From an uncultured Gemmatimonadales bacterium (GTDB lineage: Bacteria; Gemmatimonadota; Gemmatimonadetes; Gemmatimonadales; Gemmatimonadaceae), in the NCBI GenBank assembly GCA_963850905.1, contig CAWKMU010000003.1:2784001-2848000 (forward strand): a DNA stretch of 64,000 bases, in the 5' to 3' direction. Of the stretch, positions 44,280-64,000 are shown in pieces. The translations under genes were made by a program, and so were the position numbers. Each line of letters starts with the position of its first letter. Positions within the stretch are counted from its first letter, which is position 1. Below the pieces are notes generated by a model. It had not been told where the DNA came from, did no database searches, and saw only the letters and a list, made by a program, of their open reading frames with translations.

Positions 44280-44310
44280 ACGACCAGGGTCCCCGCGCGT
44301 CATAAGAAAT

Positions 44311-44334
44311 GTAGGGGCGACGCATGCGTCACCC
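44311..44334 (+). repeat. GTAG-type REP palindrome
   Basis: GTAGGGGCGACGCATGCGTCACCC. Confidence 0.8.
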
Positions 44335-44422
44335 GTTGTTGCCGGCCACCCGACGACCAAGAGCGGAGCAAGGGTCCGTCGTCCCTTGCCTCGGCGTCTA
44401 ACCACCGGTACTTTCGCATGTT

Positions 44423-45130: not shown

Positions 45131-45797
45131 CGAATCGTTCCATCTAACTCCGCTCGACGTTCGGCGCACCGAGTTCCCGGCTGCCCTGCGCGGCTATGAC
45201 AAGGCGCGGGTGGATGAATTCCGCGATCGGGTTGCCAATGAACTGGAGCGCCTGACGCGCATCAATCAGGAGCTCGAGTCGAAGGCGAAGGGCTTTCACG
45301 AGCAGCTGCGCGCCTTCCGCGAGCGGGACAAGGCGCTCAACGATGCGTTGGTGTCGGCGCAGCAGCTGCGTGCAGAAGTCCGGGAGCAGGCCGATCGAGA
45401 GGCGCAGCTCATCCGCCGGGAGGCGAGGGCCGAGGGCGAGCGCATCATCGACGACGCGCGCGTCGAATTGCGTGGCATCGCTACTGAGATCGAGGGTCTG
45501 GAGCGCGCCCGACGTGCGTACCTGGCCCAGTTTCGGTCCATGGTGGCCAGGCAGCTCGCGGAGCTCGACGCGATCCCCGACCTCTCCTCCGCGCGCCCGG
45601 TCAACCCAGCCACGTCCCCCGGCCCGTCCGCTCCGGCTCCCGGCTCGGCGCCGGCCGCCACCAACAACGTGGTCTCGCCCGCGCCGGTCGCGCCGCCACC
45701 GCCCCCACCGCCCGGAACCCCTCCTGCCAATGGAGCGGATGGGTTGCGCGCACCGGCTCCAACGCCGGCGTGGTTGAACAGCGTCCCCGGAGAATGA
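45123..45797 (+). CDS. divIVA: DivIVA-domain coiled-coil protein
   Basis: LTPLDVR..F...LRGYD..VDEF N-terminus, coiled coil, Pro-rich tail. Confidence 0.88.
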
Positions 45798-46687
45798 CGG
45801 TCTCGTCGTCGACTGCTGTCGGTGGTGGTGCGGTGGATCCGGGAGTCGGTGGCGTGGAGGACGTCTCGTTGCACACCGCAGCCCGCATCGCGGAAGCCGC
45901 CCGTGTGGTGCGCGCCCGCTTTGCAGACACACCACGCGTCGCGCTGGTGCTTGGCACGGGCCTAGGCGGATTGGCCGACTCGATCGACGTAGAAACCAGG
46001 ATCGAGTATGGAGACATACCCGGGTTTCCGCTGTCGACCGTCGAAAGCCATAAGGGTCGCCTGCTGTGCGGCACATTGCGCGGCCGAACGGTCATCGCCA
46101 TGCAGGGTCGCTTCCACCGCTACGAGGGCTATTCCCTGCAACAAGTGACGTTTCCAGTGCGCGTGCTGCGCGCCCTGGGAGCCGAAATCCTGATCGTGTC
46201 GAACGCGTGCGGCGGCATGCGCGCGGACTGGGCGCCCGGAGACCTGATGCTGATCGGCGACCACATCAACCTTCTCGGCGACAACCCGCTGGTCGGGCGC
46301 AACGACGACAGCTTGGGTCCTCGCTTTCCGGACATGTCGGCGCCCTATGACGCCGAACTGCGGAGCCTCGCGCGCCGGGTAGCGGCCGATCAAGGCATTA
46401 CCGTGCGGGAGGGCGTCTACGTCGCCGTGACCGGTCCGAACCTCGAGACACGCGCCGAGTATCGCTGGCTGCGCGGAATGGGCGCGGATGTGGTCGGCAT
46501 GTCCACGGTGCCGGAAGTCATCGTGGCCGTCCACGGTGGGCTGCGCGTCTTGGGGATTTCGGTCATCACGGATCAGTGCGTCCCCGAGACGCTCGAGCCG
46601 GCATCGCTTGGCCGCATTCTCGCGGTGGCGGCTGCCGCCGAGCCACGCCTCACGGCGGTCGTCGCCGGGGTCGTGGAGCAGCTCTGA
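45794..46687 (+). CDS. Purine-nucleoside phosphorylase (trimeric type)
   Basis: [23 protein letters not shown] and VGMSTVPE motifs. Confidence 0.94.
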
Positions 46688-46706
46688 CGATAAGGGCGCC
46701 CACCTC

Positions 46707-49700: not shown

Positions 49701-49994
49701 TCTATTCAACGGCTGCGGAAGGATGCGGGGTTCGCCGTCAGTGACCGGATCCGGCTGCTCGTCGTCGGGGTGCCGGCTGTGGCCGCGGCGGCCACCACGC
49801 ACCGCGACTGGATCGCGCACGAGGTGCTGGCGCGCGAGGTGGTCATCAAGGAAGTGCCCCATCTCGATCCCGCGACCGGAACGGGGCCGAGCACGGGAAC
49901 GCAGGATCGGCTTCAGGGATTTGACGCGGTGCGCTCGCTCGACCTCGACGGACTGAGCGTGCGGATTGCCATCACCAGGGAAGTGGACTCATGA
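46707..49994 (+). CDS. ileS: Isoleucine--tRNA ligase, type 2 (IleRS2)
   Basis: EGPPTANGRPGIHH, GWDTHGLPVE, SRDRYWGTP, EGVDQTRGWFY, KMSKS; IleRS2-type C-terminus. Confidence 0.96.
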   Translation: MTAVAQETRRFRLLPADWPSLETEMLSRWEAEHLFVKSLEAAEGRPPFVFYEGPPTANGRPGIHHVFSRTLKDLVCRHRAMRGFYVPRKAGWDTHGLPVEIEVEKSLGITAKAQIEALGVARFNELCRENVWKYRSDWEQLSERIGYWLDYSSPYITYAATYIESVWWALATLWGRGLLYPGHKILPYCPRCETALSSHELALGYRDVQDPSIYVALDLIDAGRRILVWTTTPWTLVSNTALAVHPELEYVELRPRTGADRRTLILAEARVGAVLGPDHADAWETVRRMHGSELVGLRYHRPLDWVPYPPNGDHELIVGETFVTAEDGSGVVHMSPAFGADDYAAGQRHGLAFVQPVTNRGAFARTVPVVGDLFVKEADKAIIAELRKAGLLWRADRVEHAYPHCWRCGTPLLYYARSSWFVRTTAYRDAMLARNARVGWHPPETGAGRFGEWLAGNIDWAISRDRYWGTPLPVWVCDREATHVEVVDSFATLAERIGRPLPNDFDPHKPTVDGYHWPCRTCVASSETPGTMRRVGEVIDAWFDSGSMSFAQWHYPFENQERVARQYPADFICEGVDQTRGWFYSLLAIATGLGNALPHNEDGATAPYRNVIVNDLVLDAQGQKMSKSRGNAVDPWSVIQEHGADAIRFFLIEASQVWVPRRFDEQGIRDSAGRLLITLKNTYNGIFAQYANFGWSPSGQDPAIADRPALDRWILSRLAHVEREADDYLEHYEPTLAARVVRQFIDDDVSKWYVRLSRARFYDVEPADSRSAFATLHEVLTVMSRLLAPIMPFVTDWLHRELVGTSVHLAPYVRADAGAAIDDALESAMADIRRLATLGRAARETAKIKTRHPLSRLVCVVPRATGARLEGLQALAPLLQAELNVKRVEWLSSADSLVRLSGKANFRGLGKKFGNRTPEAARAVAQLTSDQLRAFEEGGQLVIRVGTDDRALDREDVIITHGAAGDLVVQEGDGYLAAIDPRVTPELAAEGLARELVSSIQRLRKDAGFAVSDRIRLLVVGVPAVAAAATTHRDWIAHEVLAREVVIKEVPHLDPATGTGPSTGTQDRLQGFDAVRSLDLDGLSVRIAITREVDS

Positions 49995-50416
49995 CGTCAC
50001 CGACTGACGTGACCACGAGCAAGAAATTCAAGCCGATGTCGAAGAAACTGCTGGCTCACTTCGAAAAACGGCTGCTCGAAGAGCGGAAACGCGTGCTCAA
50101 GGAGCTTGGCAACTACACCGAGACCTTCGGTGCCACTCCCCAAAGCGCTGATGGCGATCTCAGCTCGTATTCCTTCCACATGGCCGATCAGGGCACGGAC
50201 GCCATGGAACGGGAGAAAGCGTTTCTTTTCGCAAGCCAGGAAGGGCGCTTCCTGTGGCATATCGACGAGGCGCTGCGCAGGCTCTACAGGGCACCTGAGA
50301 CCTTCGGACGGTGTCATAACTGTGGTGAGGAGATTGCATTCGAGCGGCTCGACGCGCTGCCGCATGCGCGCTACTGTTTCGCCTGCAAACAGCGTGAGGA
50401 GGACGGGAAGCGGTGA
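49991..50416 (+). CDS. DksA/TraR C4-type zinc finger protein
   Basis: HMADQGTD, CHNC..I...RL.ALP....CFAC. Confidence 0.9.
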   Translation: MTSPTDVTTSKKFKPMSKKLLAHFEKRLLEERKRVLKELGNYTETFGATPQSADGDLSSYSFHMADQGTDAMEREKAFLFASQEGRFLWHIDEALRRLYRAPETFGRCHNCGEEIAFERLDALPHARYCFACKQREEDGKR

Positions 50417-50438
50417 CCTGGATTTCTGACGAGAGACA

Positions 50439-50960
50439 ATGAACGAAGCGGCAGAGTCATCGAAGCGGCGATTGTTTTGGATTGTGGCGGCCGCCATCGT
50501 AGTGGCTGACCTCGTCACGAAGGCGCTCGCCGTATCATCGCTGACGATGGGATTCCCGCATGACGTCGTCGGCTCAGTGGTGCGCCTGAATCTGGTGTAC
50601 AATCCCGGCGCCGCGTTTGGTATCAACTTCGGTCCGTCGTCGCGGTGGATCTTCCTCGCGCTCACGCTCGCGGCTCTGGGGATCCTCGTGCGCCTCTACC
50701 GGGCGACTCGCGCCGGCGATGTGGCGCGCACGTTGGCGGTGGCGCTCGTGGCAGGCGGAGCGGTCGGGAACCTCGTCGACCGGATTCGATCGGCCGTGGG
50801 CGTCGTCGATTTCATCGACATCGGTGTCGGCTTCCACCGCTGGCCCACGTTCAACGTCGCGGATATGGCCGTGACGACCGGGGCATTCCTGCTCGCGTGG
50901 GTGCTGTGGATGGAGGACCGCACGCGCGAGCGACACGTCGCGCCCGTCCCCGAGATGTAG
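50439..50960 (+). CDS. lspA: Lipoprotein signal peptidase
   Basis: NPGAAFG, GNLVDR, VVDFI and FNVAD motifs. Confidence 0.95.
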   Translation: MNEAAESSKRRLFWIVAAAIVVADLVTKALAVSSLTMGFPHDVVGSVVRLNLVYNPGAAFGINFGPSSRWIFLALTLAALGILVRLYRATRAGDVARTLAVALVAGGAVGNLVDRIRSAVGVVDFIDIGVGFHRWPTFNVADMAVTTGAFLLAWVLWMEDRTRERHVAPVPEM

Positions 50961-52000
50961 CTACGGGCGAACCGACGAGCGGACGCCAGATCGCATTCGA
51001 AGTTGCCCCAGACGCCAGCGACCGGCTCGACATGCTGGTGGCCGCCGCGGCGGGGATTTCCCGCACGCAGGCTGCTACGCTGATCGCAACCGACTGCGTT
51101 GCAGTCGAAGGGCGTCGCGAAAAGGCGAGCTACAGGCCCAAGCCAGGGGAGCACATCACGGTCGGCATCCCCGTTGCCCGCGAGCGCACGCTCGTCCCGG
51201 AATCGATTCCCCTCCGCATCGTGTACGAGGATGGCGATCTCCTGGTCGTCGACAAAGCGGCGGGCATGGTCGTGCACCCCGCTCCTGGCCATTGGAGCGG
51301 CACGCTGGTCAACGCGCTTCTGGGCCGGCAGGACGAAACGGCCAACTCCGACGCAATCGATCCGAACGAGCCGCCGAGTGGTTCGATCGCGCGCGCCGGC
51401 CTCATTCATCGGTTGGACAAGGACACCTCAGGTCTCTTACTCGTCGCGAAGACGGAACGAGCGCACCGGCGACTGAGCTCGGCCATGGCCGAGCGACAGA
51501 TCCGACGACGATACGCGGTACTGGTGTGCGGACACCTCCGCGACGACCGGCTCACCATCGAGCAGCCGATCGATCGGGATCCCCGAGACCGAAAGCGGAT
51601 GGCGATCGTCAGTACGGGACGGCCGGCACGGACGGATTTCGTGCGGCTGGCACGATTCGATTCGGTTGACTTGTTGCGCGCTCGGCTACTCACGGGCAGG
51701 ACGCACCAGATCCGTGTACACCTGGCGTCGGCGGGGCACCCGGTCGTGGGTGATGATACGTACGGTGGCGGCGGGGGACGGCGCTTCGTAGGGCTACCGC
51801 CGCGACGGCACTTCCTGCACGCGGCGTGGCTGCTGTTTCGTCACCCGTTGACGGGGGAGCCGATGGACCTGCGGTCGCCGCTGCCAAGTGACCTCGAGAC
51901 GTCGCTGGCTAGTGTCGCAGGGCAGCCTGGAGCGGACGACAGCCGGATTTGGAAGGGGGATGGTCTTGAGGAATGGGGCTTCTACCGAGCCGACGACTGA
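50957..52000 (+). CDS. rluD: RluA/RluD-family pseudouridine synthase
   Basis: S4-like RLD..SRTQ, GMVVHP, HRLDKDTSG, TGRTHQIRVH; start unclear. Confidence 0.9.
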   Translation, partial: VATGEPTSGRQIAFEVAPDASDRLDMLVAAAAGISRTQAATLIATDCVAVEGRREKASYRPKPGEHITVGIPVARERTLVPESIPLRIVYEDGDLLVVDKAAGMVVHPAPGHWSGTLVNALLGRQDETANSDAIDPNEPPSGSIARAGLIHRLDKDTSGLLLVAKTERAHRRLSSAMAERQIRRRYAVLVCGHLRDDRLTIEQPIDRDPRDRKRMAIVSTGRPARTDFVRLARFDSVDLLRARLLTGRTHQIRVHLASAGHPVVGDDTYGGGGGRRFVGLPPRRHFLHAAWLLFRHPLTGEPMDLRSPLPSDLETSLASVAGQPGADDSRIWKGDGLEEWGFYRADD

Positions 52001-52541
52001 CGCGTCCCCGGACGCCGCGGGCGTCGCCGGAGATCAGGAAAATGCGGAGCAGGGTGGAGGAGCACTCCACGCCCTGGGCAACTCAGCCGATGCCCCGCGC
52101 TTGCTCGTGTTCACGGCTGCGGGTCGAACGTGCGCGTGCGAGTTGACCGCGGTTCGGGAGATCATCCCGCATCGGCGGGCGACGCGACTGCCTGGTGCGC
52201 CGTCGTTCGCCGTGGGGCTGATCAATCTCCGAGGATCCATCGTCACGGTACTGGATCTCGGTATTCGACTTGGTGGGCGCGCTGTGGATGTGGAGCGCGG
52301 CTCGATCGTCCTCGTGGACCACGGTTCGAGAGTGGTGGGTTTGGCCGTCGACGAATTGCGTGACGTCCAGCGCGTGTGGCGATCGTCGATCGAACCGGCC
52401 GACGCTGAGGCCGAGCAAGAGGGATTCGTGCGTGGGATGTTGAGGGCAGCGGGCGAGGTCGCCGCGCTGTTGGACGTGAGCCGCATCGTCGCTGATGCCC
52501 TGGGGTCGGCGACGTACCGCCAGCATAACAGCCTGGAGTGA
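51960..52541 (+). CDS. cheW: Chemotaxis coupling protein CheW
   Basis: VREII..TRLPGAP..GLINLRGSIVTVLDL, GLAVD. Confidence 0.92.
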   Translation: MVLRNGASTEPTTDASPDAAGVAGDQENAEQGGGALHALGNSADAPRLLVFTAAGRTCACELTAVREIIPHRRATRLPGAPSFAVGLINLRGSIVTVLDLGIRLGGRAVDVERGSIVLVDHGSRVVGLAVDELRDVQRVWRSSIEPADAEAEQEGFVRGMLRAAGEVAALLDVSRIVADALGSATYRQHNSLE

Positions 52542-52543
52542 TC

Positions 52544-52906
52544 GTGAGCCATTCAGTCCTCATCTGTGACGATGCCATTTTCATGCGGACCATGGTGGGT
52601 GATATCCTGCAGCAGGCGGGATTCGACATCGTGGGCGAGGCCGAGACGGGTCTGCAGGCGGTCGAGAAGTACAAGCAGCTTCGCCCGGACCTCGTCACTA
52701 TGGACATCGTCATGCCCGACATGGGCGGGATCGATGCCGTCCGGGAGATCACGAAGTTCGATCCCCAAGCCAAGATCCTGATGTGCAGCGCGATGGGACA
52801 GCAGGCGCTCGTCGTCGAGGCCATCCAGGCGGGCGCGCGGGATTTTGTCGTGAAGCCCTTCCAGCCCAGTCGCGTGCTGGAAGCGGTTCAGCGCGTGCTC
52901 GGCTAG
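52544..52906 (+). CDS. cheY: Response regulator CheY
   Basis: ICDDAIFMR, MDIVMP, CSAMGQQ, VKPF (Bacillus/Thermotoga-like CheY). Confidence 0.93.
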   Translation: MSHSVLICDDAIFMRTMVGDILQQAGFDIVGEAETGLQAVEKYKQLRPDLVTMDIVMPDMGGIDAVREITKFDPQAKILMCSAMGQQALVVEAIQAGARDFVVKPFQPSRVLEAVQRVLG

Positions 52907-52960
52907 GGTGACGATGCGTCGTCCCTGGTTGGTCGAGTAGGGGCGACGCATGCGTCGCCC
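52903..52960 (+). repeat. Degenerate plus intact GTAG-type REP between cheY and cheA
   Basis: CTAGGGTGACGATGCGTCGTCCC (contains the cheY stop) then GTAGGGGCGACGCATGCGTCGCCC at 52937. Confidence 0.8.
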
Positions 52961-53003
52961 CCGTTCGGACGACTAGGCGTCCGGGTCGCCCGGCCTCGCA
53001 CGC

Positions 53004-55118
53004 ATGGACGCAGCGCAATACGCCGATCTCTTCCTGACCGAGAGTCGTGAGCACCTCTCGGCCATCAATCTCGCCCTACTCGATATCGAGCGTGGGCTGA
53101 CTGCCAACCCGCCCGCCGGTGACGCGGTCGCGGCGGGCTCCGGGTCCGAAGGCGGTGGAAGCAGCGAGGGCATCGCCGCCGCCGTGGCATCGCTGTTCCG
53201 GGCCGTTCACACCATCAAGGGAATGAGCGCGACGCTGCGCTACGACGCAGTGGCTGCTCTGTCGCACGAGCTCGAAGCCCTTCTCGACCGGCTGCGGCGT
53301 GGAGAGCTCGCGCCCGACGCGAACCTGATGAATATCCTGTTCGCTGCCGCGGATCTGCTCGAAGCATCGATCGAGCGAGCCGTGGCGGGCCAGCCAGATG
53401 ACGCGCGTCTCGAAGAAGTTGTTGGTCGCATTCGACGGGCGGCGGCCGCGCGGCACGAACCAGTGAACGGTCGCGCCGCGCCTGGGCGCAAGACGTCTCG
53501 TGCGAAGCGCGCGCCGCCCGCTCGTCGATCACGAGCGGGCGCCAGAGGTGCCTCGCGAGGAAAGGCCACGAGGCAGCGGGTGCGCCCCGCCGTGCCGCGA
53601 GACGATGCCGCAGGCGGAGCCGAGACGATCGTACGGGTCCACCTGGCCGCCGCAGCGACGTTCCGCGCGGCGCGGGCTGCCGTGGCCGTGCAACGCGCGC
53701 GGGCGCTGGGGGACGTGCTCGGCGTGAGCCCCGTGCTGGAGACCGTGCCAGCGGATGGTCCTGGGCCGGAGGTGATCGAGATCCGTCTGCGCACGCAGGC
53801 GAAGACGGCGGCCATCGTCGGGCAGATCGAGGGGGCAGGGGACGTCGCGCGCGTCGAGGTGCGTCGCGATCGAGTCCGCGGGGGTACGCGACCCGGCCGC
53901 CATTCCGGAGCCGCCCGGCACTCTGCCAACGGCAACGGCGACAGCGGCGCCGATGGCATCGCGCGAACGCGACACGTGCGAATCGATCTGCGACGGTTGG
54001 ACGCGCTCATGGACTTGATCGGCGAGTTGGTCATCGCACGTGGCCGCCTCGTCGAGCTCACGAGCACCGAGGAAGAGTCCGCGCTGAGCGAGGCGGTCGC
54101 CGATGCCAGTCGGTTGATCGGAGACCTGCAGCAGGAGATCATGACCTGCCGGATGGTGCCCGTCTGGCAGGTCTTCGATCGATTCCCTCGCCTGGTACGC
54201 GACACCGCCCAGGTGCTCGGGAAGCAGGTCAGTTTCGAAGTCGAGGGCAAGGACATCGAGCTCGATCGGTCGATGCTCGACGAGATCGGGGATCCGATAG
54301 TCCACCTGCTGCGGAATGCGTTGGATCATGGAATCGAGCTGCCGGACACGCGGGTTGCCGCCGGTAAGCCGCCTCAGGGCCACTTGACGCTGAGCGCTGC
54401 ACGCGACCGATCTGCCGTGCTGATCCGGGTCACGGACGATGGGCGTGGGATCGACCGAAACAAGGTGCTCGTACGTGCGCTCGAGTCTGGGCTCGTGGAC
54501 CCTGGGACGACCGCACTCAGTGACGACGAAGTGATCCGGCTGATCGCGCGCCCGGGCTTCACGACGGCCGAAGAGGTGACAGATGTGTCGGGTCGGGGCG
54601 TCGGCATTGACGCGGTCCAGGCCAGGGTTCGGGCGTTGGGTGGCTCCATCGACATCAAGAGTGCGGCCGGTGAGGGGACCACGGTGACCGCGCGGCTGCC
54701 GCTCACCCTTGCCATCATGCGGGCGCTGCTCGCCCGGGTCGGACGAGAGGCTTATGCCTTTCCCATGGCCCACGTCGACGAAACGGTTGGTACGGAAGGG
54801 GCAAACTATGCGGCCGTGCGCGGTCGCCCAGTGATCGTGATCCGAGGGGAGGCAATCCCCTTCGTGAGGTTGCGTGATCTGGTCGGACTCGAGCCGGCCT
54901 CGAGCCCGGTGCCGACCCCCGATCCCGAGCAGCATGTCATTGTCGTCGAGTCGGGTGGCCATCGGGCCGCAGTCGCGGTCGACGAGCTGATGGGGCAGGC
55001 CGACATCGTCGTGAAGCAGTACGACCATGTGCGCGGCGGTGCGGCGTTGTTCAGCGGAGCCACAGTCCTCGGGGACGGAGCACCCGCCTTGATCGTCAAT
55101 GTGAGCAGCCTTTTCTAG
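53004..55118 (+). CDS. cheA: Chemotaxis histidine kinase CheA
   Basis: Hpt FRAVHTIKG, HLLRNALDHG, DDGRG, SGRGVG, C-terminal CheW domain. Confidence 0.95.
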   Translation: MDAAQYADLFLTESREHLSAINLALLDIERGLTANPPAGDAVAAGSGSEGGGSSEGIAAAVASLFRAVHTIKGMSATLRYDAVAALSHELEALLDRLRRGELAPDANLMNILFAAADLLEASIERAVAGQPDDARLEEVVGRIRRAAAARHEPVNGRAAPGRKTSRAKRAPPARRSRAGARGASRGKATRQRVRPAVPRDDAAGGAETIVRVHLAAAATFRAARAAVAVQRARALGDVLGVSPVLETVPADGPGPEVIEIRLRTQAKTAAIVGQIEGAGDVARVEVRRDRVRGGTRPGRHSGAARHSANGNGDSGADGIARTRHVRIDLRRLDALMDLIGELVIARGRLVELTSTEEESALSEAVADASRLIGDLQQEIMTCRMVPVWQVFDRFPRLVRDTAQVLGKQVSFEVEGKDIELDRSMLDEIGDPIVHLLRNALDHGIELPDTRVAAGKPPQGHLTLSAARDRSAVLIRVTDDGRGIDRNKVLVRALESGLVDPGTTALSDDEVIRLIARPGFTTAEEVTDVSGRGVGIDAVQARVRALGGSIDIKSAAGEGTTVTARLPLTLAIMRALLARVGREAYAFPMAHVDETVGTEGANYAAVRGRPVIVIRGEAIPFVRLRDLVGLEPASSPVPTPDPEQHVIVVESGGHRAAVAVDELMGQADIVVKQYDHVRGGAALFSGATVLGDGAPALIVNVSSLF

Positions 55119-55142
55119 GCCGACCCGCGGGAGCCGCTACGC

Positions 55143-55763
55143 ATGGATGACATTCGATCGCTGAAGGCGCACCAACTCGATGCCCTCCGGGAAGTTGCTA
55201 ACATCGGCGCGGGTCACGCGGCGACCGCCCTGTCGCAGATGACCGGCGGCACGATCATGATCAGCGTGCCGACGATCAACATCGCGCGCCTCGAGGACGT
55301 GCCGCCCCAGATCTCGGGCCCCGAAGAGCCGGTCGCGGCCGTGCTGATGAACATGCTCGGTGACCTGACCGGACGGACGTTGCTGGTATTCCCGCACCCG
55401 ACCGCGGTGCGACTGTCGGAGATCATGCTGAGCCGGCCGCGCGGGGGAGATTTCGAGCTGGGCGAGATCGAGCAGTCGGCGATCAAAGAGGCGGGCAACA
55501 TCCTGAGCGGCGCCTACCTCAACGCGCTCAGTGAGTTCATGGGCCTGATGCTCCTCCCGTCACCCCCGAGTCTCGCCGTGGATATGTCGAGCGCGGTGTT
55601 GACGACGGCGTACCTGCAGTTTGGGACGGATCGCGACTACGTGTTTTGCGTCGAGACGGAGTTCTTCATGCAGGAGCTGAAGGAGCGCTTGCGCGGCTTC
55701 TTCCTGCTGCTGCCTGACGTCGCCTCGCTCCACGCGATCCTGCGCGCCGTCCGCGTCGCCTGA
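55143..55763 (+). CDS. cheC: CheY-P phosphatase CheC
   Basis: DALREVANIGAGHAATALS and SAIKEAGNIL (two ExxN motifs). Confidence 0.93.
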   Translation: MDDIRSLKAHQLDALREVANIGAGHAATALSQMTGGTIMISVPTINIARLEDVPPQISGPEEPVAAVLMNMLGDLTGRTLLVFPHPTAVRLSEIMLSRPRGGDFELGEIEQSAIKEAGNILSGAYLNALSEFMGLMLLPSPPSLAVDMSSAVLTTAYLQFGTDRDYVFCVETEFFMQELKERLRGFFLLLPDVASLHAILRAVRVA

Positions 55764-55784
55764 CGCGAGCGCGGGGGCGGTGGC

Positions 55785-58556
55785 GTGACCGCAACGCGTC
55801 CGAACAACCTGCTCTCTGAACGGGACCGCGAGGTCCTGCGGTCGTTCGCACGGCGCATCGATCCCTCGGACGCCGGCGCGCACAACAACCTCGGAGTCCT
55901 CTACTACCACAAGGGTCTGTACGAGGAGGCCGTCGCCGCGTTCACGCGAGCGCTCGAGCTGGACTCCAAGATGCGCGTGGCGCAGCGCAATCTGGAGATC
56001 GCGTACTTCAGCACCGGCTACTACGATCGTCGCGTCGCGACGCTGCGCGACCGTCTGCGTGCCGCGCCGGAGGACCGGGACGCCCGGTGGGAGTTGGGCC
56101 GCGCGTACAGCCTCCTTGGCCGGTTCGCCGAATCCACCGCTGAATTCGTCGAGCTACTCAAGCACCATCCCAACGATCTCGGCGCCCTCGTCCAGTTGGG
56201 CCTGGCCGAAAAATCGTCGGGTGACCTCGAGCAAGCCCAGACCTGGTTCGAGCGGGCACTCGCGTTGGATCCCGAAAGTCCCGTCATTCTCTTTTACATC
56301 GGCGAGGTCCTGTACAATCGTGGGTTGAACGACGAGGCGTTGGTCGCACTCGAACGCGCCATTGCGGCGCATCCTGACAACCCCGATGCGCACTACCTGA
56401 TGGGCTTCGTGCTGGGCGACATGGGTCGTCACGAGGACGCTCGTCAGGCAACCAAGCGCGCCGTGCAGCTCAACCCGGCGTTGTCGAGAGCGCAGACCAA
56501 TCTGTCGCTCGACGAGTCGGCCCTCGCCAAACCGGCACCCGCGTCCGAAGCGACGAATCGGCTGGCAGAAGCCGCGATGACCGTGGCCGACGAGGGCGCG
56601 CTCGCGCATTTCAACCTCGGACTCGCCTTTCGGCAAAAGGGCTATTACGCCGAAGCGTTGCATGAATACGAGCTCGCGCTCACACGCGGGGAGGAGCGGG
56701 GCCTCGTCCAACAGGCAATCGCCGAAGTGCACCTGCTCCGACGGGATGTCACCGGCGCCGTGGCGGGGTACGACCTGCTCCTCGTCGACCATCCGACGAG
56801 TCCGAAACTGTGGAACGAGCGCGGTGTGGCCCTCCACCAGGATGGCCGCTACGAAGAGGCCGCACACAGCTACCGGCGCGCCATCGACTGCGACGCGCAC
56901 TACGCGATCGCCCACAACAATCTCGGTGTGGCGCGCTATCACGCGGGTGAGCCGGATGCCGCGGCGGAATCATTCGGCGCTGCCTTGCAACTGGTGCCCG
57001 GGTTCGCGCACGCGCGGTTGAACCTCGCACTCCTGCACTTCAAGGCAAAAAGGCTCCCGGCGAGCTTGGAGTCGTACCGCCGGGTGCTGGCCGACGAGCC
57101 CGAAAATGCCGCGGGATGGAATGGAGTCGGGCTGGTCCTGACGGAGCTGCGTCGGTTCGACGAGGCGCGCAATGCTTTTGCGCGTGCGGTACAGAGCAAA
57201 CCCGGGTACGCGGAGGCCCGCTACAACCTGAGTTTTGCGCTGTCGAACCTCGGCGAGTTCGATGCGGCCCTTCGCGAGACGAAACGCGCGATTGAGCTCG
57301 ATCCCTACTACGTGCCGCAAAAATTCGAGCTGGCGATCGACTTCCAGTATGAGCATCCCGAGCTCTCGATCGTGCCGGATCTGGGGGGCGCCGCCCGCGC
57401 CGACGAGCATGCCATCGCCGATTTCGCGTTCGATCCGTCGCTCCTCGACTCGCTCTTCACCACGCTGACCCCGGCGGCTGGCGTCGAAGCGGTGCAGCCC
57501 CTCGGTCCCGACCCGTACGGCATTGCGCTCGACTACCTGTCGAAAGGGATGTACGAGCGGGCGACAGCCGAGGTCAGTCGCGCGCTGCTCCGCGGAGCCG
57601 ATCGCGCGAGCGGCATGACGATCCTCGGGGACTTGTTCCAGCGCCAGGGCCTCCATGGCGAGGCGTTGGATCGATACCGCGACGCGCGGCGGACGAATCC
57701 GGGTGCCGCTCGAGCGCTGGCCGGCGAAATTCGCGCGCTCGTCGCGCTCGGACGTGGCGCGGACGCTCGATCCGCCGCCGATGAGCTCCTGCACGTGGCC
57801 CCGAACGATACCGATGCACTGCTGGCCGTCGCGGCCGCACGGGCGAGTGGCGGAGATCCCACCGGCGCCCTCGCGTTGCTCGAGACCGCGAAGGGCCTCG
57901 CCCCAGAGCGGGCCGACGTGCTGCACGCTGTCGGTGATGTGAGCCGGGACGCCGGCGACACGGGGAACGCCGTCGCCGCTTATCGTGCCGCACTGGTCCT
58001 CGACCCCGAACGCGCGGTCATCCGTTACGAGTTGGCACGGCTGCTCGCCGCGACCGCCAACGTGGCTGAGGCGGAAGCAGAGCTCCTCGCGGCACTGGAA
58101 CAGGTCCCCACGTACGCACATGCCACGCTGGCACTGGCCGATCTGTGGCGCACCTCCGGTCGCACCGCCGAGGCGATCGACCTGCTGGTCGGGCTGCTCG
58201 AGCGCGACCGGTCGCACGTCGATGGGCTGTTGGTCTTGGGAGAACTGCTGTTCGATGCCGGGCGCCGGCGCGACGCCGCCCGCGTGTTTGCCAGGCTCCT
58301 CGTGGTCGATCCAGCGCATCCCGGCGCGCTGTATTACGGCGGCGCGCTCCTCGCGGATCAGCACCGCTATCGAGAGGCGATTGAGCGCTGGGATGCCGTG
58401 ATCGCCACGCAGCCGGACGGGCTGTTTGGCCAACGCGCGCGCCGGGATCGACGAACCGCGAGAGACCTCGCACACATCTTCGTGCGCCGCCAAGAGACGC
58501 AGGGCGGTGGGCTGGGCGCGGTGCAGGCGGAACTCGCGTTCGGGAGGGCCAGCTAG
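55785..58556 (+). CDS. Large cytoplasmic TPR-repeat protein (923 aa)
   Basis: Many AHNNLG/AHFNLG/ARYNL-type TPR units; no signal peptide. Confidence 0.9.
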   Translation: MTATRPNNLLSERDREVLRSFARRIDPSDAGAHNNLGVLYYHKGLYEEAVAAFTRALELDSKMRVAQRNLEIAYFSTGYYDRRVATLRDRLRAAPEDRDARWELGRAYSLLGRFAESTAEFVELLKHHPNDLGALVQLGLAEKSSGDLEQAQTWFERALALDPESPVILFYIGEVLYNRGLNDEALVALERAIAAHPDNPDAHYLMGFVLGDMGRHEDARQATKRAVQLNPALSRAQTNLSLDESALAKPAPASEATNRLAEAAMTVADEGALAHFNLGLAFRQKGYYAEALHEYELALTRGEERGLVQQAIAEVHLLRRDVTGAVAGYDLLLVDHPTSPKLWNERGVALHQDGRYEEAAHSYRRAIDCDAHYAIAHNNLGVARYHAGEPDAAAESFGAALQLVPGFAHARLNLALLHFKAKRLPASLESYRRVLADEPENAAGWNGVGLVLTELRRFDEARNAFARAVQSKPGYAEARYNLSFALSNLGEFDAALRETKRAIELDPYYVPQKFELAIDFQYEHPELSIVPDLGGAARADEHAIADFAFDPSLLDSLFTTLTPAAGVEAVQPLGPDPYGIALDYLSKGMYERATAEVSRALLRGADRASGMTILGDLFQRQGLHGEALDRYRDARRTNPGAARALAGEIRALVALGRGADARSAADELLHVAPNDTDALLAVAAARASGGDPTGALALLETAKGLAPERADVLHAVGDVSRDAGDTGNAVAAYRAALVLDPERAVIRYELARLLAATANVAEAEAELLAALEQVPTYAHATLALADLWRTSGRTAEAIDLLVGLLERDRSHVDGLLVLGELLFDAGRRRDAARVFARLLVVDPAHPGALYYGGALLADQHRYREAIERWDAVIATQPDGLFGQRARRDRRTARDLAHIFVRRQETQGGGLGAVQAELAFGRAS

Positions 58557-59710
58557 TGCCGATTGAAGGCGCCCTTCGCGAGCTGAGTATCCATGATGTG
58601 TTCCAGCTGCTGGACCTGAGCCGGAAGACGGGTGCGCTGCGGGTGACGTCGGAGCTGCGTGACAACGAGGGCATCGTGCTCTTCGATCGCGGGCGGATCG
58701 TCTCGGCGACGGTGCGCAGCAGCCCGCACCCGCTCGGCTCCATGCTCGTGCGGGCAGGCCGGATCAGTGAAGCAGAGCTCGCGCACGCGCACCAGCTGCA
58801 AGCGGAGGGCGACCCCCGGCGCCTCGGCGAGATCCTCTTGGCGATGGGCGCGATCGGCGCCCGAGAGCTGGAGCGCCAGGTGCGGCTTCAGATGGAGACC
58901 GTCGTCTTCGAGCTCATGTCGTGGCGGGACGGGTTCTTCTCCTTCGAGGAACGCGACGTCAGCGACGCCGTGGTGGAAGCCCCCGTCCATGTCTCGACGG
59001 AATCGCTCCTGATGGAAGGAGCTCGGCGCATTGACGAGTGGTCGCGCATGGCCGACCGCATCCCGACGCTCGATGTGGTGCCCGTCCTCGCCGCCGTACA
59101 GGAGGACCACGCCACGTTACTGGACTTGCTCCCCAGCGAATGGGAAGTGCTGGCGGCGATCGATGGGACGAGCGACCTCCGGGGAATCGCGGGCTCGCTC
59201 GGACGCAGCGAATTCAATGTGGCGAGAGTCGTCTACGGCTTGCTGTCGACCGGCGTGGTTGCGCTCGATCCTCGCGCCATGAACGGGCGGACCCCGACCG
59301 GCGTGCCGCTCGCGGCCGACCCGGAGTCCACGCTGGCAGCTGCGCGTCACGCACTGGCCGCAGGCGTTCCGGAGGAGGCGCTCCATGGCGCTCGTCAGAT
59401 CATTGGTCTCGATCCTTCCCGGGTCGAGGCCCGCCTTCTGGCGGCCCGTGCGCTGCGGCGACTCAGACGATTCGGGGATGCAGCGGAGGAGATCCGACGC
59501 GCGTTGGAGTTGGCTCCCGACCATCCTGGCCTGTGTCTCGAGCAAGGCTTCGCTGCATTGAGCCGCGGTGACTTCCACGGTGCCGCGACAAGCTGGGAGC
59601 GCTACCTCCGGCTCACGCCGGCCAGTGCGCCTGACGCGGACGGGGTGCGCGAGGCGGTGGCATCGGCATCCTACCTGCGCGGCTTCCTGGAGGCATATAC
59701 CGGTGGCTGA
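58556..59710 (+). CDS. DUF4388 (PATAN-like) domain protein with C-terminal TPR
   Basis: IEGALRELSIHDVFQLL..SRKTG.L, W.DG.F.F, LLMEGARRIDEW, then a wHTH-like region and TPR. Confidence 0.88.
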   Translation: MPIEGALRELSIHDVFQLLDLSRKTGALRVTSELRDNEGIVLFDRGRIVSATVRSSPHPLGSMLVRAGRISEAELAHAHQLQAEGDPRRLGEILLAMGAIGARELERQVRLQMETVVFELMSWRDGFFSFEERDVSDAVVEAPVHVSTESLLMEGARRIDEWSRMADRIPTLDVVPVLAAVQEDHATLLDLLPSEWEVLAAIDGTSDLRGIAGSLGRSEFNVARVVYGLLSTGVVALDPRAMNGRTPTGVPLAADPESTLAAARHALAAGVPEEALHGARQIIGLDPSRVEARLLAARALRRLRRFGDAAEEIRRALELAPDHPGLCLEQGFAALSRGDFHGAATSWERYLRLTPASAPDADGVREAVASASYLRGFLEAYTGG

Positions 59711-60662
59711 CGACATCGAGCGTTGGAGCGAGGAGCTCGCCCGAGACCCGGGCAGCGGTGTGTTCATTCCTCTCGCGGATGCGCTGCGCCGTCGCGGGCA
59801 ACTCGATCTGGCCTTTCGCGTCGCGACCCGCGGATTGGCGCGACGGCCCTATGACGGAGATGCACACGACCTGCTCGCTCGCATCTGGGCGGATCGCGGC
59901 GATGGCGAACGCGCCATGGATGAGTGGGGCATCGCCCTGCAGTGTGCGCCGGCCCATGCCGGTGCGCTCAAGGGCATGGGCTTCGCGTGCTATCAAGCGG
60001 GTCGACTGGCCGATGCTGAGCGCTATCTCGTGGAGGCAGCCGCGATCGACCCCGACGACGTCAGCATTCGCACGGCACTCGCTCGCGTCCGTCACCTAGC
60101 ACCGCGGGTACAGCCGGCGGGAGCGGAGGGCGAGGTTCGCCGCAATGGCGCGGATCATCCTGTCCCGATCGCGTCGACCGAAGTCGCGCCCATGGCGCGG
60201 ATTGAGAAAGCAGCCAGCACGCTGGAGCGTCGCGCGCCCGGCCGCCGCATCGATCCCCGACTCGTTTTCGCGGAACAGCTCGATCCGGCTGATCAAGCGG
60301 CACTCCTGGTCGACGCGGACGGTCTCGTGCTGGCGGGGAGCTACGTCGTGGCCGATGGTCGGGATGTCGCGCAGGAGGTAGGTGCGGCGTTGAGCGGCGT
60401 GAGCGATGAGGCGCGGCGCGCGATGCGCCACCTCGGGCTCGGAGCGTGGAGCTCCCTGGTCTTCGAGGCGGAGGCCGCGACGGTCGGCATGGCCCCGGTC
60501 GCGGTTGGCGCCGCCGAGGCATCCGGTGATGCAACGGACGGTGTGGCATTCGTGGCGGCGGGCCCGTCGGTACCGCTTGGGCTGGTACGCCGGCTGTTGG
60601 CGCGCGTCGGTACGTGCGCCCAGGAATGGCTCAGACACGACGGCGCGGGAGCGGATCGATGA
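59703..60662 (+). CDS. TPR plus Roadblock/LC7 fusion protein
   Basis: N-terminal DPGS.VF..LADALRRRG TPR; C-terminal ALLVDADGLVL..LG.W..L..E Roadblock-like. Confidence 0.8.
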   Translation: MADDIERWSEELARDPGSGVFIPLADALRRRGQLDLAFRVATRGLARRPYDGDAHDLLARIWADRGDGERAMDEWGIALQCAPAHAGALKGMGFACYQAGRLADAERYLVEAAAIDPDDVSIRTALARVRHLAPRVQPAGAEGEVRRNGADHPVPIASTEVAPMARIEKAASTLERRAPGRRIDPRLVFAEQLDPADQAALLVDADGLVLAGSYVVADGRDVAQEVGAALSGVSDEARRAMRHLGLGAWSSLVFEAEAATVGMAPVAVGAAEASGDATDGVAFVAAGPSVPLGLVRRLLARVGTCAQEWLRHDGAGADR

Positions 60663-61006
60663 GCTCTCCCTTCATCGATCTGCTGCTCGGGCTTGCGAGG
60701 CATCGGGGCGTGCAGGGCGGCCTAATCGTCAGCGAACGCGATGGAATTGTGGTGGACGCCCACGTCCAGATTGGCGTGCGCACGAGCGTCGTCGCGGCGC
60801 TGGCGGCGTCGATCTATCGCAGGGCACGACAGTCCGCTGGCGCCGCGGGGCTCGGCGCGGTGACGTACCTCGAGCTCGTCGCGGCGAGTGGGAGACTCTG
60901 TATGGCCGGGCGCGACGATCTGGTGATCGTCGTGATCACCGACGCTCGGGCAACGGCCGGTCTCCTGCGGACGGCTGTCCTTCGCGCCTGCGAGACGCTG
61001 GCGTGA
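60659..61006 (+). CDS. Roadblock/LC7 (MglB/MglC-like) protein
   Basis: GVQGGLIVSERDGIVV..VAALAAS..GLG..LE. Confidence 0.82.
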   Translation: MSSPFIDLLLGLARHRGVQGGLIVSERDGIVVDAHVQIGVRTSVVAALAASIYRRARQSAGAAGLGAVTYLELVAASGRLCMAGRDDLVIVVITDARATAGLLRTAVLRACETLA

Positions 61007-61473
61007 CGACGGCCGTCGTCGAGAAGTGGATTGAAGGCCCGCTGCGGCAATTCGTCGAGGATGCGCATGTGTTGCTCGCCCTCATCCTGACGCCAAGTGG
61101 CCAGGTCCTGGCGCAACACGGGTTCTCCCGGGCCGTCGACGTCATGTCGGCCTGCGCGCTCGCCGCGGCGATTCATGCGTCGGGCGGCGAGCTGGGTCGT
61201 CAATTACAGGGGCGGCCGTTTGGCGGGTTGCACCATTCCGGTACGGCGCGGCAGTTGTTCCTCGCGGCAGCCGAGACGCGGCGGGGTCTCTTGCTGTGCC
61301 TCACGGTGTTTGACGAGGCGACGTCGTTTGGCCTCGTGCAGCTGTACTTCGATGAGTTGCGGATGCACCTGGCTGACGCCGCGCCCGTATCAGAGACGCT
61401 GCCACCCGCCGTCCTGGCCGAGACCTTCGAGCAGGATCTCGACCGCAATCTCGCTCTCCTCTTTCGCCGATAA
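61003..61473 (+). CDS. mglB: MglB-like Roadblock protein (probable GAP)
   Basis: L..SGQVLAQHG, A.ALAAA, F..L.H.G, VFD..TSFGLV, C-terminal helix DLD.NL..LF; immediately upstream of mglA. Confidence 0.78.
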   Translation: MTTAVVEKWIEGPLRQFVEDAHVLLALILTPSGQVLAQHGFSRAVDVMSACALAAAIHASGGELGRQLQGRPFGGLHHSGTARQLFLAAAETRRGLLLCLTVFDEATSFGLVQLYFDELRMHLADAAPVSETLPPAVLAETFEQDLDRNLALLFRR

Positions 61474-61477
61474 GCCC

Positions 61478-62125
61478 GTGCCGCTCGTCAACTACGCCAC
61501 GCGCGAGATCACGTGCAAGATCGTCTACTACGGCCCGGGGCGGTCGGGGAAGACGACCAACTTGCACTACATCTACGGCCAGGTTCCGACCGATCGCAAA
61601 GGGCGCATGGTATCGCTCGCGACCCAGACGGACCGCACGTTGTTCTTCGATTTTCTCCCCCTCGATCTCGGCACGATCTCTGGTTTCACGACCAAGATCC
61701 AACTCTATACTGTCCCGGGCCAGGTGTACTACCAGACGACACGCAAGCTCGTGCTCCAGGGCGCGGACGGCGTGGTGTTCGTGGCGGACAGTCAGGCGCG
61801 CCAGCTCGAGGAGAACATCGAAAGCCTGCAGGACTTGCACGCGAACCTGGCGGAGCACGGCATGGACGCGCGGGTCGTGCCGCTGGTGCTGCAGTACAAC
61901 AAGCAGAATCTCCCCGCTGACCTCATCCTCGACGTCGCGGCACTCGACGATGCGCTCAACTTTCGGAACGTGCCGTCGTTCCCGGCCGATGCGCTGCACG
62001 GACCGGGCGTATTCGAGACGCTGCGCGGCATTTCCGAGCTCGTCCTGAAACGATTGAGTGGTCCGGGCCGGCCCGTCGGAGCCGGTAGAAGCTCGTCACC
62101 GGCGGCCGCCGGCACGCGGCGCTAG
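61478..62125 (+). CDS. mglA: MglA-family small Ras-like GTPase
   Basis: KIVYYGPGRSGKTTNL, TDRTLFFDF, YTVPGQ, GADGVVFVADS; G4 reads NKQN. Confidence 0.95.
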   Translation: MPLVNYATREITCKIVYYGPGRSGKTTNLHYIYGQVPTDRKGRMVSLATQTDRTLFFDFLPLDLGTISGFTTKIQLYTVPGQVYYQTTRKLVLQGADGVVFVADSQARQLEENIESLQDLHANLAEHGMDARVVPLVLQYNKQNLPADLILDVAALDDALNFRNVPSFPADALHGPGVFETLRGISELVLKRLSGPGRPVGAGRSSSPAAAGTRR

Positions 62126-62138
62126 CGGAGGGACGTCG

Positions 62139-64000
62139 GTGCAGCTGGACGAGCGATATCGCTTCGACAACTTCGTCGTTGGCTCTGCCAACCGGCTGGC
62201 GGCAGCTGCCGCTCGAGCTGTGGCCGAAGCCCCGGGCACGACCTACAACCCGCTCGTGATCTACGGGGCGACGGGCCTCGGGAAGACGCACCTGCTAGGC
62301 GCCATCGGCAGCCACGCCGCCAGCCTCCAGCCCGGCTTGCATGTGGACGCACTCGCGCTGGACGAGTTTGTGCGTCAGCTCCACGCGGCCGTATCGGTGG
62401 GCGAGGTCGATGCTTTTCGACAGCGGTATGCGCACGCCGACATGCTCCTGATCGACGATATCCAGTTCCTCACGGGCCGGCGGGAGACACAGACGGAGTT
62501 GCTGCGGTTGTGCCAGTCGCTGCAAGACAGCGGACGCCAGATCGTATTGACCAGCGACCGCCCGCCCACCGAGATCACGGATGTGGACGATCGCCTCGTC
62601 GCACGGCTGGCGGGTGGTCTGGTCGTCGACATCGGAGTCCCGGACTATGAGACGCGGGCTGCAATGCTCGCGACCTGGTGCCAGGAGCGGAGCGTGCAAT
62701 GCGGGCCCGGTGTCATCGAGGAGTTGGCGCGCCTCGATCTGCGCAACATTCGTGAGCTGCAGGGCGCGCTGACTCGCGTTGTCGCATACCAGACTCTCGG
62801 GCCCAATGGACGAACGATCGAGGTCAGTGACGTGCGTCGGTTGTTCGCGGCCCAGTCCGAGCGGCGTCGCACGGACACACGAGGGACCGGTGAGCCGCGC
62901 ACGCCATCCGCCAATGGTGCCGCGCCGGAAGCGGGTGAATACCTGAATTTCCTGTCCGACATGGCCAGCGCGGTCGCCCAGCATGTCGAGCCGTGGCGCA
63001 TGCAGCTCGCCGAGGCAGCGGCGTACTGGGCGGGCGAGGGGTATCGACCGGCAATCCTCGAGCGCGCGCTGCACGCGAGTGTGGACCCTGGAAGCGAAAG
63101 CGTGCTCAATGCCTACGTCGCGACGATTGAGCGCCTGCGCGCGCTCGAGACGGAGGTCCTGCAGATCGACCCGTCCGTGGCGGGCACTGACGTCTTCCGG
63201 GATCCGGAGCGTGTCGCCGAAGCCGAGGGATTGTTGACCCGTGTGCGCGCCGGCACCACTCCGCCTTCGGGGCCATCGACCGAGTTCACCCGTCGTGGCT
63301 TTGCGGTGGGCAACTCCAATGAGCTGGCGGTGCGTGCCGCGGATGCGGTCGTGTCGGAACCGGGCCGCCGGTTCAATCCGCTCTTCGTCCACGGACCGAG
63401 TGGCGTCGGCAAAACGCATCTCCTCAATGCGATCGGCAACGGGCTCGTGGCCGCACGACAGGGTCGCAGTGTCGTGGCGTGCGTGGGCGCCCAATTACTC
63501 ATCGATGAGCTGATCGATGCGCTGCGAGAGGGACAGGTAGAACGGTGGCGGCGCCGCTACCGGGCCACGGATGCACTGCTCATCGACGACGTCCATTTCC
63601 TGGCAGGGAAGGAGCGGACGCAAGAGGAGTTCTTTCACGTCTTCAATGACCTGTACGCCGCCGGCAAGCAGATCGTGCTGACGAGCGATCGCCCGCCGCA
63701 AGCGCTGGCGGAGCTCGAGGGACGACTCCAGTCACGGTTCGCGGGAGGTCTCGTGGCGGAAATCCAACCGCCGGACCACGACCTGAGAGAGAAGCTCTTT
63801 ACCCACTACCTCAGGACCACGACCGCCGGCCGTGACACTGCACTGGCCGAGTACCTCGCCGCGCAACCCGTTGCGAATGCGCGTGAGATCCTCGGAGTGG
63901 TCAATCGCCTGGCCGCCGCCGCGGAGATGGCGGCCGTGTCGCTCACCCTCGATTTCGCTCGGACCCAGCTGGAAGCCGGAGGAACCGCGGACCCGACGCC
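62139..64000 (+). CDS. DnaA/Hda-family protein with two tandem AAA+ modules (3'-truncated by the window)
   Basis: Manual translation from GTG 62139 (GGAGGG RBS): YRFDNFVVGSANRLA..NPLVIYGATGLGKTHLL..LLIDDIQFL; second module NPLFVHGPSGVGKTHLL..LLIDDVHFLAGKERTQEEFFH; open to the end; absent from the ORF track. Confidence 0.92.
   Translation, partial: MQLDERYRFDNFVVGSANRLAAAAARAVAEAPGTTYNPLVIYGATGLGKTHLLGAIGSHAASLQPGLHVDALALDEFVRQLHAAVSVGEVDAFRQRYAHADMLLIDDIQFLTGRRETQTELLRLCQSLQDSGRQIVLTSDRPPTEITDVDDRLVARLAGGLVVDIGVPDYETRAAMLATWCQERSVQCGPGVIEELARLDLRNIRELQGALTRVVAYQTLGPNGRTIEVSDVRRLFAAQSERRRTDTRGTGEPRTPSANGAAPEAGEYLNFLSDMASAVAQHVEPWRMQLAEAAAYWAGEGYRPAILERALHASVDPGSESVLNAYVATIERLRALETEVLQIDPSVAGTDVFRDPERVAEAEGLLTRVRAGTTPPSGPSTEFTRRGFAVGNSNELAVRAADAVVSEPGRRFNPLFVHGPSGVGKTHLLNAIGNGLVAARQGRSVVACVGAQLLIDELIDALREGQVERWRRRYRATDALLIDDVHFLAGKERTQEEFFHVFNDLYAAGKQIVLTSDRPPQALAELEGRLQSRFAGGLVAEIQPPDHDLREKLFTHYLRTTTAGRDTALAEYLAAQPVANAREILGVVNRLAAAAEMAAVSLTLDFARTQLEAGGTADPT

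Follow-up and report, generated by a model that had tools for sequence, protein, structure and literature searches.

What does a bacterium gain from a gene cluster in which a chemosensory pathway, an MglA GTPase with its Roadblock proteins, large tetratricopeptide repeat (TPR) proteins and an ATPase derived from the replication initiator DnaA are encoded side by side? Such a cluster fills the end of a 64,000-nucleotide stretch of DNA (the window, G000:C3:2784001-2848000) from an uncultured Gemmatimonadales bacterium whose genome, G000, is 82% complete. A first-pass annotation of the window had proposed an undescribed signalling and polarity system, perhaps tied to the cell cycle. Our analysis finds one ancestral signalling cluster of the class, a real, ancient and modular system. 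We lean slightly towards the view that it governs polarity together with type IV pili or some other surface structure at the pole, and not a flagellum; its DnaA-derived protein is not a replication initiator. The Che-MglA-PATAN polarity theme is known already, and the DnaA-derived ATPase is the one new component.

Pfam and PDB matches confirmed the eleven co-directional genes and the domains that had been assigned to them. The features, with window coordinates and strand, are as follows.

51960..52541, +, CheW (PF01584, E 2e-32); start at ATG 51960 or TTG 51966, overlapping the end of rluA
52538..52906, +, CheY (PF00072), a single receiver domain with conserved phospho-Asp motif (TMDI)
53004..55118, +, CheA with Hpt, dimerisation, HATPase and CheW domains; the sole CheA detected in G000
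55143..55763, +, CheC phosphatase (PF04509) with two conserved ExxN motifs
55785..58556, +, TPR923, an all-TPR protein of 923 amino acids (aa), likened to SgmX by architecture only
58556..59710, +, PATAN-a, a PATAN (DUF4388)-TPR protein (PF14332, E 2e-30)
~58730-58876, degenerate MshEN-like insert in PATAN-a (NF053729, 34.8 bits, below the cut-off of 38)
59703..60662, +, TPR-Roadblock fusion (PF03259, E 1e-5)
60659..61006, +, stand-alone Roadblock/LC7 protein (PF03259, E 9e-7)
61003..61473, +, MglB-like Roadblock protein, candidate GTPase-activating protein (PDB match to Myxococcus xanthus MglB, 6h5b, E 8.5e-7)
61478..62125, +, Group 1 MglA GTPase, a second paralogue (PDB match to M. xanthus MglA, E 5e-71)
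62139..64000, continuing to G000:C3:2848112, +, DnaA-derived AAA+ protein (AAA-1, linker, AAA-2, C-terminal tail)
62145..62843, +, AAA-1, DnaA domain III fold
62922..63260, +, helical linker domain of no Pfam family, first helix EFxxFLxDVxxxVA at ~62937-62999
63285..63974, +, AAA-2, DnaA domain III fold, more degenerate and missing from some relatives
residues ~632-657 of the DnaA-derived protein, just beyond the window, conserved tail

Downstream of cheW the successive gene junctions measure -4, +97, +24, +21, -1, -8, -4, -4, +4 and +13 nucleotides, so that the tight packing reported earlier holds, with overlaps at five of the ten. The proposed eleven-gene operon was right about its genes but not about its extent, since the window edge cuts a cluster of about 19 genes of which these are the first part. 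The ATPase (657 aa) ends at G000:C3:2848112, equivalent to window position 64112, and overlaps the gene of PATAN-b, a second PATAN (DUF4388)-TPR protein of 543 aa; cheR, cheD, cheB, two cheW, a TPR protein and a peptidase-MA-like gene follow. A scan for promoters and terminators gave counts not above chance (promoters 0 versus 1.7 expected, terminators 6 versus 7.4 expected).

The order of these genes is held far beyond the source genome. Sixty relative loci were compared, a non-random set of which 40 were picked by ATPase matches, 13 had been missed by the linker search and 7 were further positives. The interval from rluA to the downstream marker is fully spanned in 50 of them, and all 15 core genes stand in the order of G000 at 28 of these 50; three gene-order flags were traced to unrelated downstream matches. 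Because the same order recurs across several families of the class, the eleven-gene arrangement is beyond chance, and the synteny that the first-pass annotation had named as a check is present within Gemmatimonadota. CheY is 78-100% identical across relatives. Among 201 genomes sampled evenly across the phylum (tallies that take in one unpublished genome, G016), the linker was matched in 136 and PATAN-b in 147, among them 136 of the 140 genomes of the order; families f6 and f9-f12 of this sample gave no PATAN-b match, and f7 gave one in 2 of 24 genomes. ATPase homologues with 53-58% identity over the linker bear Gemmatimonadaceae names.

Natural deletions among the relatives map the wiring of the cluster. 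Only the ATPase and PATAN-b are left at L037 and L038. L036 keeps cheY together with the TPR/PATAN/Mgl block and has lost every other che gene, while L039-L041, L145 and L146 have lost all three Roadblocks and cheR, four of these five also lacking the MshEN insert of PATAN-a. Three near-complete genomes (L141, L143, L144) have lost the entire cluster with intact flanks. The separate losses of the Che, Mgl/Roadblock and ATPase/PATAN-b parts therefore mark the cluster as modular, and they speak against a single rigid machine. PATAN-b and its upstream partner are the last part of the cluster to disappear.

That partner need not be a full-length ATPase. Families f1 and f2 contain 14 linker-negative genomes; 13 were examined, G062 being left out, and eight of the 13 have lost both AAA domains. 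Each of the eight ATPase-less loci keeps an open reading frame of ~60-85 aa adjoining PATAN-b, which consists of the first helix of the linker (EFxxFLxD[L/I]xxxVA) and the tail (xKxxxxWPxxxxRxxEExR). Seven of these microproteins were detected by profile and the one at L133 by reading frames. They lie at L132:10924-11145, L137:6882-7082, L139:12949-13176 and L140:2097-2408, and also at L134, L135, L133 and L138, and are probably unannotated. On a quick tree of RluA+LspA+DksA (36 rows) the loss of the ATPase takes four changes, at least three of them forced by starred branches, which amounts to 3-4 independent events. The MshEN insert of PATAN-b has been cleanly deleted in seven of the eight ATPase-less loci (three changes on the same tree) and is kept in 47/47 AAA-bearing loci; as the kin are not independent, this joint loss is a pattern and not a statistic. 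The notion that full-length ATPase and PATAN-b are inseparable was dropped, since only helix and tail persist.

The retained tail has a predicted binding site. Complex prediction used the single-AAA protein (407 aa) of relative G009 and its PATAN-b (543 aa), with 36-row alignments each, and returned a tail-TPR complex with an interface score (ipSAE) of 0.77, against 0.01 for the best of three controls. The ipSAE mark is reached by 116/157 solved and 2/215 mismatched pairs, rates that are only rough with our own alignments. Runs agree in at least 37% of contacts with a partner pLDDT of at least 63, and the confident interface comprises only tail residues 380-406 in the TPR groove at 283-494. 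Conservation is higher at the groove positions than elsewhere in the TPR region of PATAN-b (0.64 versus 0.55). N322 and N428 of the groove, like helix and tail, are kept in all eight ATPase-less loci, and Q458 and N462 in seven. The model is credible because genomes independently retain exactly this peptide, and we predict that the C-terminal tail of the ATPase docks in the TPR groove of PATAN-b.

The two PATAN proteins match PF14332 at 105.5 and 127 bits (cut-off 25). PATAN-b also passes a model of MshE-type domains that bind cyclic di-GMP (c-di-GMP), with 55.5 bits against a cut-off of 38 that PATAN-a, at 34.8, stays below; judged by its RLG-type motif PATAN-b is a candidate c-di-GMP receptor. 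The chemosensory proteins have intact catalytic motifs, and the best NCBIfam matches of CheA, CheC, CheD and CheY are to halophile and Thermotoga models, all below cut-off. G000 has one CheA only and four matches to methyl-accepting chemotaxis proteins (MCPs), all elsewhere in the genome, with no receptor in the cluster. A GAF-containing MCP stands beside trpA and an HD-domain protein (L153:6987-11553), and a CheB-CheR-PAS-histidine kinase fusion (1200-aa frame; L156:4296-7895) lies elsewhere in G000, unlinked to the cluster.

MglA has the features of Group 1, for which a G1 GxxxxGKT, a G2 Thr beside an Arg finger and a G3 TVPGQ have been described (PMC4316618). G1 to G3 and the Arg finger are intact, GPGRSGKTT being found in 40/50 and TVPGQ in 49/50 orthologues, and DRT (the G2 Thr and Arg finger) in every motif variant among the 42/50 rows listed. 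The G4 motif is NKxD in 43/50 orthologues; G000 and five genus-mates (6/50) have NKQN (window 61895-61909), a change that could alter nucleotide affinity or specificity. The MglB-like protein has no Pfam match, scores far below cut-off with NF052242 (E 6e-4), and its gene is absent in several carriers. A canonical mglBA pair on contig C4, beside ybaB-recR, and a normal dnaA are encoded elsewhere in G000, and the MglA and DnaA-like genes of the cluster are therefore extra paralogues.

How these parts might work together is suggested by two known systems. The cluster resembles Frz/Mgl of M. xanthus in its Group 1 MglA with intrinsic Arg finger, its MglB-like protein and extra Roadblocks, its large TPR protein and its Che pathway, and by the type IV pili genes in the G000 genome (pilB(MshEN)-pilT-pilC and pilM). 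FrzE is a CheA-CheY hybrid, whereas CheA here is a plain kinase with CheC and CheD; all parts stand in one cluster without a receptor, and two PATAN-TPR proteins and the DnaA-derived ATPase are among them. SgmX of M. xanthus has 14 TPRs (PMC9811614), to which MglA-GTP and a CheY-like domain both bind, activating the pili (PMC9811614, PMC7668184). The notion that SgmX carries MshEN or DUF4388 was abandoned for want of support, with no mention in the accessible text of these two papers. Cyanobacterial PatA-type regulators of Tax systems likewise place a PATAN domain (DUF4388/PF14332) in a chemosensory cluster. In the cluster described here, however, PATAN is fused to TPRs and not to a receiver domain, and is joined by MglA/Roadblock proteins and an ATPase. 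In Synechocystis, PATAN is a binding partner of PilB1 and PilC and determines the direction of movement, and it has an alpha-clip insert like the PilB N-terminus (bioRxiv 10.1101/2021.06.11.447907).

On these precedents, the CheA/CheY/CheC/CheD/CheR/CheB pathway, fed by receptors encoded elsewhere, would be routed into a polarity module. Phosphorylated CheY (CheY-P) would act on the TPR/PATAN-a/MglA layer, and MglA-GTP, spatially limited by the MglB-like and extra Roadblock proteins, would bind the large TPR protein as MglA binds SgmX. The PATAN domains might contact PilB/PilC as their cyanobacterial counterpart does, with PATAN-b reading c-di-GMP through its MshEN insert, so that CheY-P and MglA-GTP would act on the pilus motor by way of the PATAN proteins and the large TPR protein. 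The DnaA-derived protein would serve as an adaptor whose tail holds PATAN-b and whose short amphipathic helix holds a second partner; the optional AAA+ domains may add an ATP-dependent oligomer or switch, tending to be lost together with the c-di-GMP insert. The polarity or surface-motility role already suspected at first pass fits both the PATAN, TPR and MglA precedents and the lack of a detected flagellar switch in most carriers.

The abundant Gemmatimonadota are still little understood. In their main order the cluster is present in most genomes, often in the absence of flagella. If pilus and polarity control is its role, the cluster would be a candidate controller of surface behaviour in these bacteria and would gather at one locus the chemosensory-to-MglA link that Myxococcus spreads over its genome. 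It would also present a DnaA AAA+ core re-used outside replication, with seemingly archaeal relatives. As a conserved, tightly packed unit of Che, MglA/Roadblock, PATAN-TPR and DnaA-derived parts it appears to be undescribed, as had been supposed: in the accessible open-access literature no description of either cluster or ATPase was found, apart from a single row in the Table S2 by Wuichet and Sogaard-Andersen (PMC4316618). That row gives a Gemmatimonas aurantiaca locus as PATAN>MglA>-PATAN>, with an unlabelled gene between MglA and the second PATAN; the main text, as far as accessible, does not mention chemotaxis, TPR or DnaA. The order is that of the Roadblock-less form of the cluster (L039-L041, L145, L146), and we infer that the two are the same locus type.

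Several observations weigh against pilus and polarity control as just outlined. Some loci loosen its links: L137-L139 have a Che core without MglA, L134 and L135 have MglA without a Che core, and, given that modules are lost independently, the link from Che to MglA may be a loose one. L134 is also the exception among ATPase-less loci, having kept its MshEN insert, and the last of the predicted contact repeats is missing from its PATAN-b. The canonical mglBA of G000 lies outside the cluster. No pil gene is found inside it, and PilM is present in 49 of 51 hand-picked genomes, including most that lack the cluster; since carriers and non-carriers alike have PilM, it does not discriminate, and pili are compatible with the cluster and not diagnostic of it. 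The complex was modelled on the pair of the relative G009 and not on that of G000, and, because a peptide in a TPR groove is common among solved structures, resemblance to these may partly explain why it passed. CheB, finally, ends out of frame in G000 and in its close relative G004, with the usual C-terminus in another frame. The frame is lost ~40 residues before the end (L002:5956-7218, G000:C3 ~2851094-2852218; L011:2439-4202), either through a real frameshift common to both genomes or through a common assembly artefact. The location of the cluster is a further such point and is taken up below.

At L134 (G131), a short tandem repeat, ATGCGGGACGCCTCG, in about 5 copies occupies 10985-11092, between microprotein and PATAN-b.

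Could the main output instead be exopolysaccharide (EPS), adhesion or a biofilm state, set through c-di-GMP by a Dif-like chemosensory pathway for which MglA and PATAN are accessory localisation factors? The set of CheW-CheY-CheA-CheC plus CheD with unlinked receptors and no flagellar switch found, which we take to be like M. xanthus Dif, would suit such a pathway, as would the MshEN-type insert of PATAN-b. Yet the cluster contains no EPS gene, and where partners of PATAN and MglA are known they are pilus and polarity proteins, which leaves this account unlikely, though the best placed of the rivals.

The location of the cluster argues for another function, namely a module for positioning cell division, budding or pole identity and not for motility. 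The upstream run dacA-yggS-divIVA-pnp-ileS-dksA/traR-lspA-rluA (window 43395-52000) is conserved, co-directional and abuts the cluster; downstream, one more TPR gene is followed by rsmH-ftsI-murE-murF-mraY, the last four named by inspecting translations. A place between yggS-divIVA-ileS-lspA-rluA and these dcw genes favours a division role over control of pili, and so do the 50 of 60 loci in which the interval from rluA to the downstream marker is spanned and the near-universal presence of the cluster in the order. Against this, the three near-complete genomes of L141, L143 and L144 have lost the whole cluster between intact flanks, in several families most genomes gave no match to it, and the unit contains no division protein. 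A division role seems to us improbable, a shade more so than a Dif-like output.

The coupling of signalling to the cell cycle through the DnaA-like protein, which the first-pass annotation had suggested, is not supported. On this account the protein would regulate replication initiation, in the manner of Hda or by co-polymerising with DnaA. Its attraction lies in the fold. In the AlphaFold model of the ATPase (pLDDT 88.9) two domains adopt the DnaA domain III fold, accompanied by a helical linker and a short tail, and both AAA domains superpose on 8bv3 with a TM score of 0.94 on the target and a root-mean-square deviation (rmsd) of 1.4 A. Walker A and B, Arg finger and sensor II are mostly intact: among 41 sequences AAA-1 has the Walker A K in 40, the Walker B DD in 39, the Arg finger in 29 and the sensor II R in 31, AAA-2 being more eroded. 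The description 'double DnaA' is accurate for G000, which has two Bac_DnaA domains, and does not extend to the relatives, which have two, one or no AAA+ domains.

The likeness to DnaA domain III and Hda ends with the fold and the ATPase motifs. DnaA domains I, II and IV are absent, there being no Bac_DnaA_C or DnaA_N match, no conserved extension precedes domain III in the aligned relatives, and the protein ends in its 26-aa tail; linker and tail are new. The ATPase passes TIGR00362 only via the sum of its two domains. It failed the Hda models, with 156.6 bits against a cut-off of 194.8 for TIGR03420 and far lower scores for the others. The Trp of RFEWG, beside the Arg finger, is present in 39/41 canonical DnaA sequences, 0/25 AAA-1 and 0/21 AAA-2, and is replaced by Gly (RFEGG) in 20/25 AAA-1 and 16/21 AAA-2. 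An IQ-TREE analysis of 58 rows subsampled from 112, with two P0185 domains left out, set the 20 canonical DnaA rows, including G000's own, on one side of a 97/88 branch; the tree is unrooted with long branches, and its canonical sample is a biased one in which a single DnaA comes from Gemmatimonadota. With no DNA-binding domain, a normal dnaA elsewhere, and both AAA domains lost 3-4 times while the docking peptide stays, regulation of replication is very unlikely, and the JGI name 'chromosomal replication initiator' for close homologues is probably wrong.

Where, then, does the ATPase come from? The linker is modelled as a helical bundle with nothing clear in a fold search (best Z 5.9, EzrA, rmsd 8.2 A, 109 aligned). 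Its profile, searched against 1.84 billion representatives, gave 486 matches at E up to 0.001, with long helical repeat proteins making up many of the top-ranking ones. Beyond its first helix the linker is the repeat unit of long, partly archaeal proteins, in which the ~95-aa helical repeat (motif W..EGY....LE...DP) occurs in 4-25 copies (P0001-P0017, P0155-P0184). Three of ten repeat clusters looked up had organism names, which were Thermoplasmata, Thermoplasmatota, Bathyarchaeia and Thermoproteota. In one group, 1-11 copies are combined with a DnaA-type AAA+ domain and with zinc ribbons or DUF835. These proteins (P0009, P0024, P0176 and kin) share with the ATPase the linker repeat, a DnaA-type AAA+ without domain IV and RFEGG (Gly in 19/25, Trp in only 2), and differ in their zinc ribbons or DUF835 and in having no tail motif. 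They are probably archaeal, to judge from the DUF835 fusions and the archaeal names of repeat-only relatives.

Linker repeat and W-to-G signature together suggest a common origin of the ATPase and these proteins; it is suggested and not shown, because the tree is unrooted with long branches and a biased canonical sample. A scan of the genome collection for the gene context of repeat-plus-AAA proteins returned one canonical DnaA only. A metagenome scan gave 80 loci whose DnaA proteins, nearly all with domain IV, had no linker, PATAN or tail and were used solely as tree references.

It is possible, though doubtful, that the ATPase represents a hitherto unrecognised family of DnaA-derived ATP switches with no role in replication, common to Gemmatimonadota and archaea, whose cores pair with PATAN/MshEN-type domains. 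In such a family a DnaA AAA+ core with a helical repeat would be joined to PATAN/MshEN-type domains by the tail-TPR clasp or within one chain. A polar, ATP-dependent DnaA-like oligomer, gated by c-di-GMP on PATAN-b, might then act as a second nucleotide switch that places or reverses pili alongside MglA-GTP and CheY-P. A PATAN-like N-terminus of the repeat family, which would be a 'Rosetta stone' fusion, is a weak lead: profile-profile comparison gave P = 0.02-0.05 (probability 1-2%), and Atlas matches were DUF2226 at 0.88 and PatA_N at 0.85. The reciprocal Atlas query returned no DUF2226 cluster, and Pfam at E up to 0.3 found neither DUF2226 nor PatA_N at this N-terminus. In P0172 (1893 aa) a single chain unites MshEN, a pair of DnaA-type AAA+ domains and DUF4398 repeats.

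An ordinary flagellar chemotaxis operon with unrelated genes inserted, for which the complete Che set and FliM/N in 37 of 136 linker-positive genomes (hand count) could be cited, is the least probable account and was disfavoured already, as the other 99 have no FliM/N match, several flagellated carriers have further CheA genes elsewhere and the inserted genes hold their order across families. FliM/N occur in 52 of the 201 genomes of the phylum; the flagellar switch (FliM/FliN) was not found in G000, at its 82% completeness, and twelve genomes at least 95% complete have the full 15-gene cluster without a FliM/N match.

Some minor features of the locus may be added. The second cheW of G000 also appears frameshifted. 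The downstream TPR gene (L002:8312-9204) is spread over three frames in G000 and is one ORF of ~290 aa in 13 of 18 relatives checked, so that its reading frames point to probable sequencing errors. lspA is present in two copies at L039-L041, L146 and L151. A tRNA-like sequence was seen by eye at L002 ~10755-10825, past the cluster's end and ahead of the TPR-rsmH genes.

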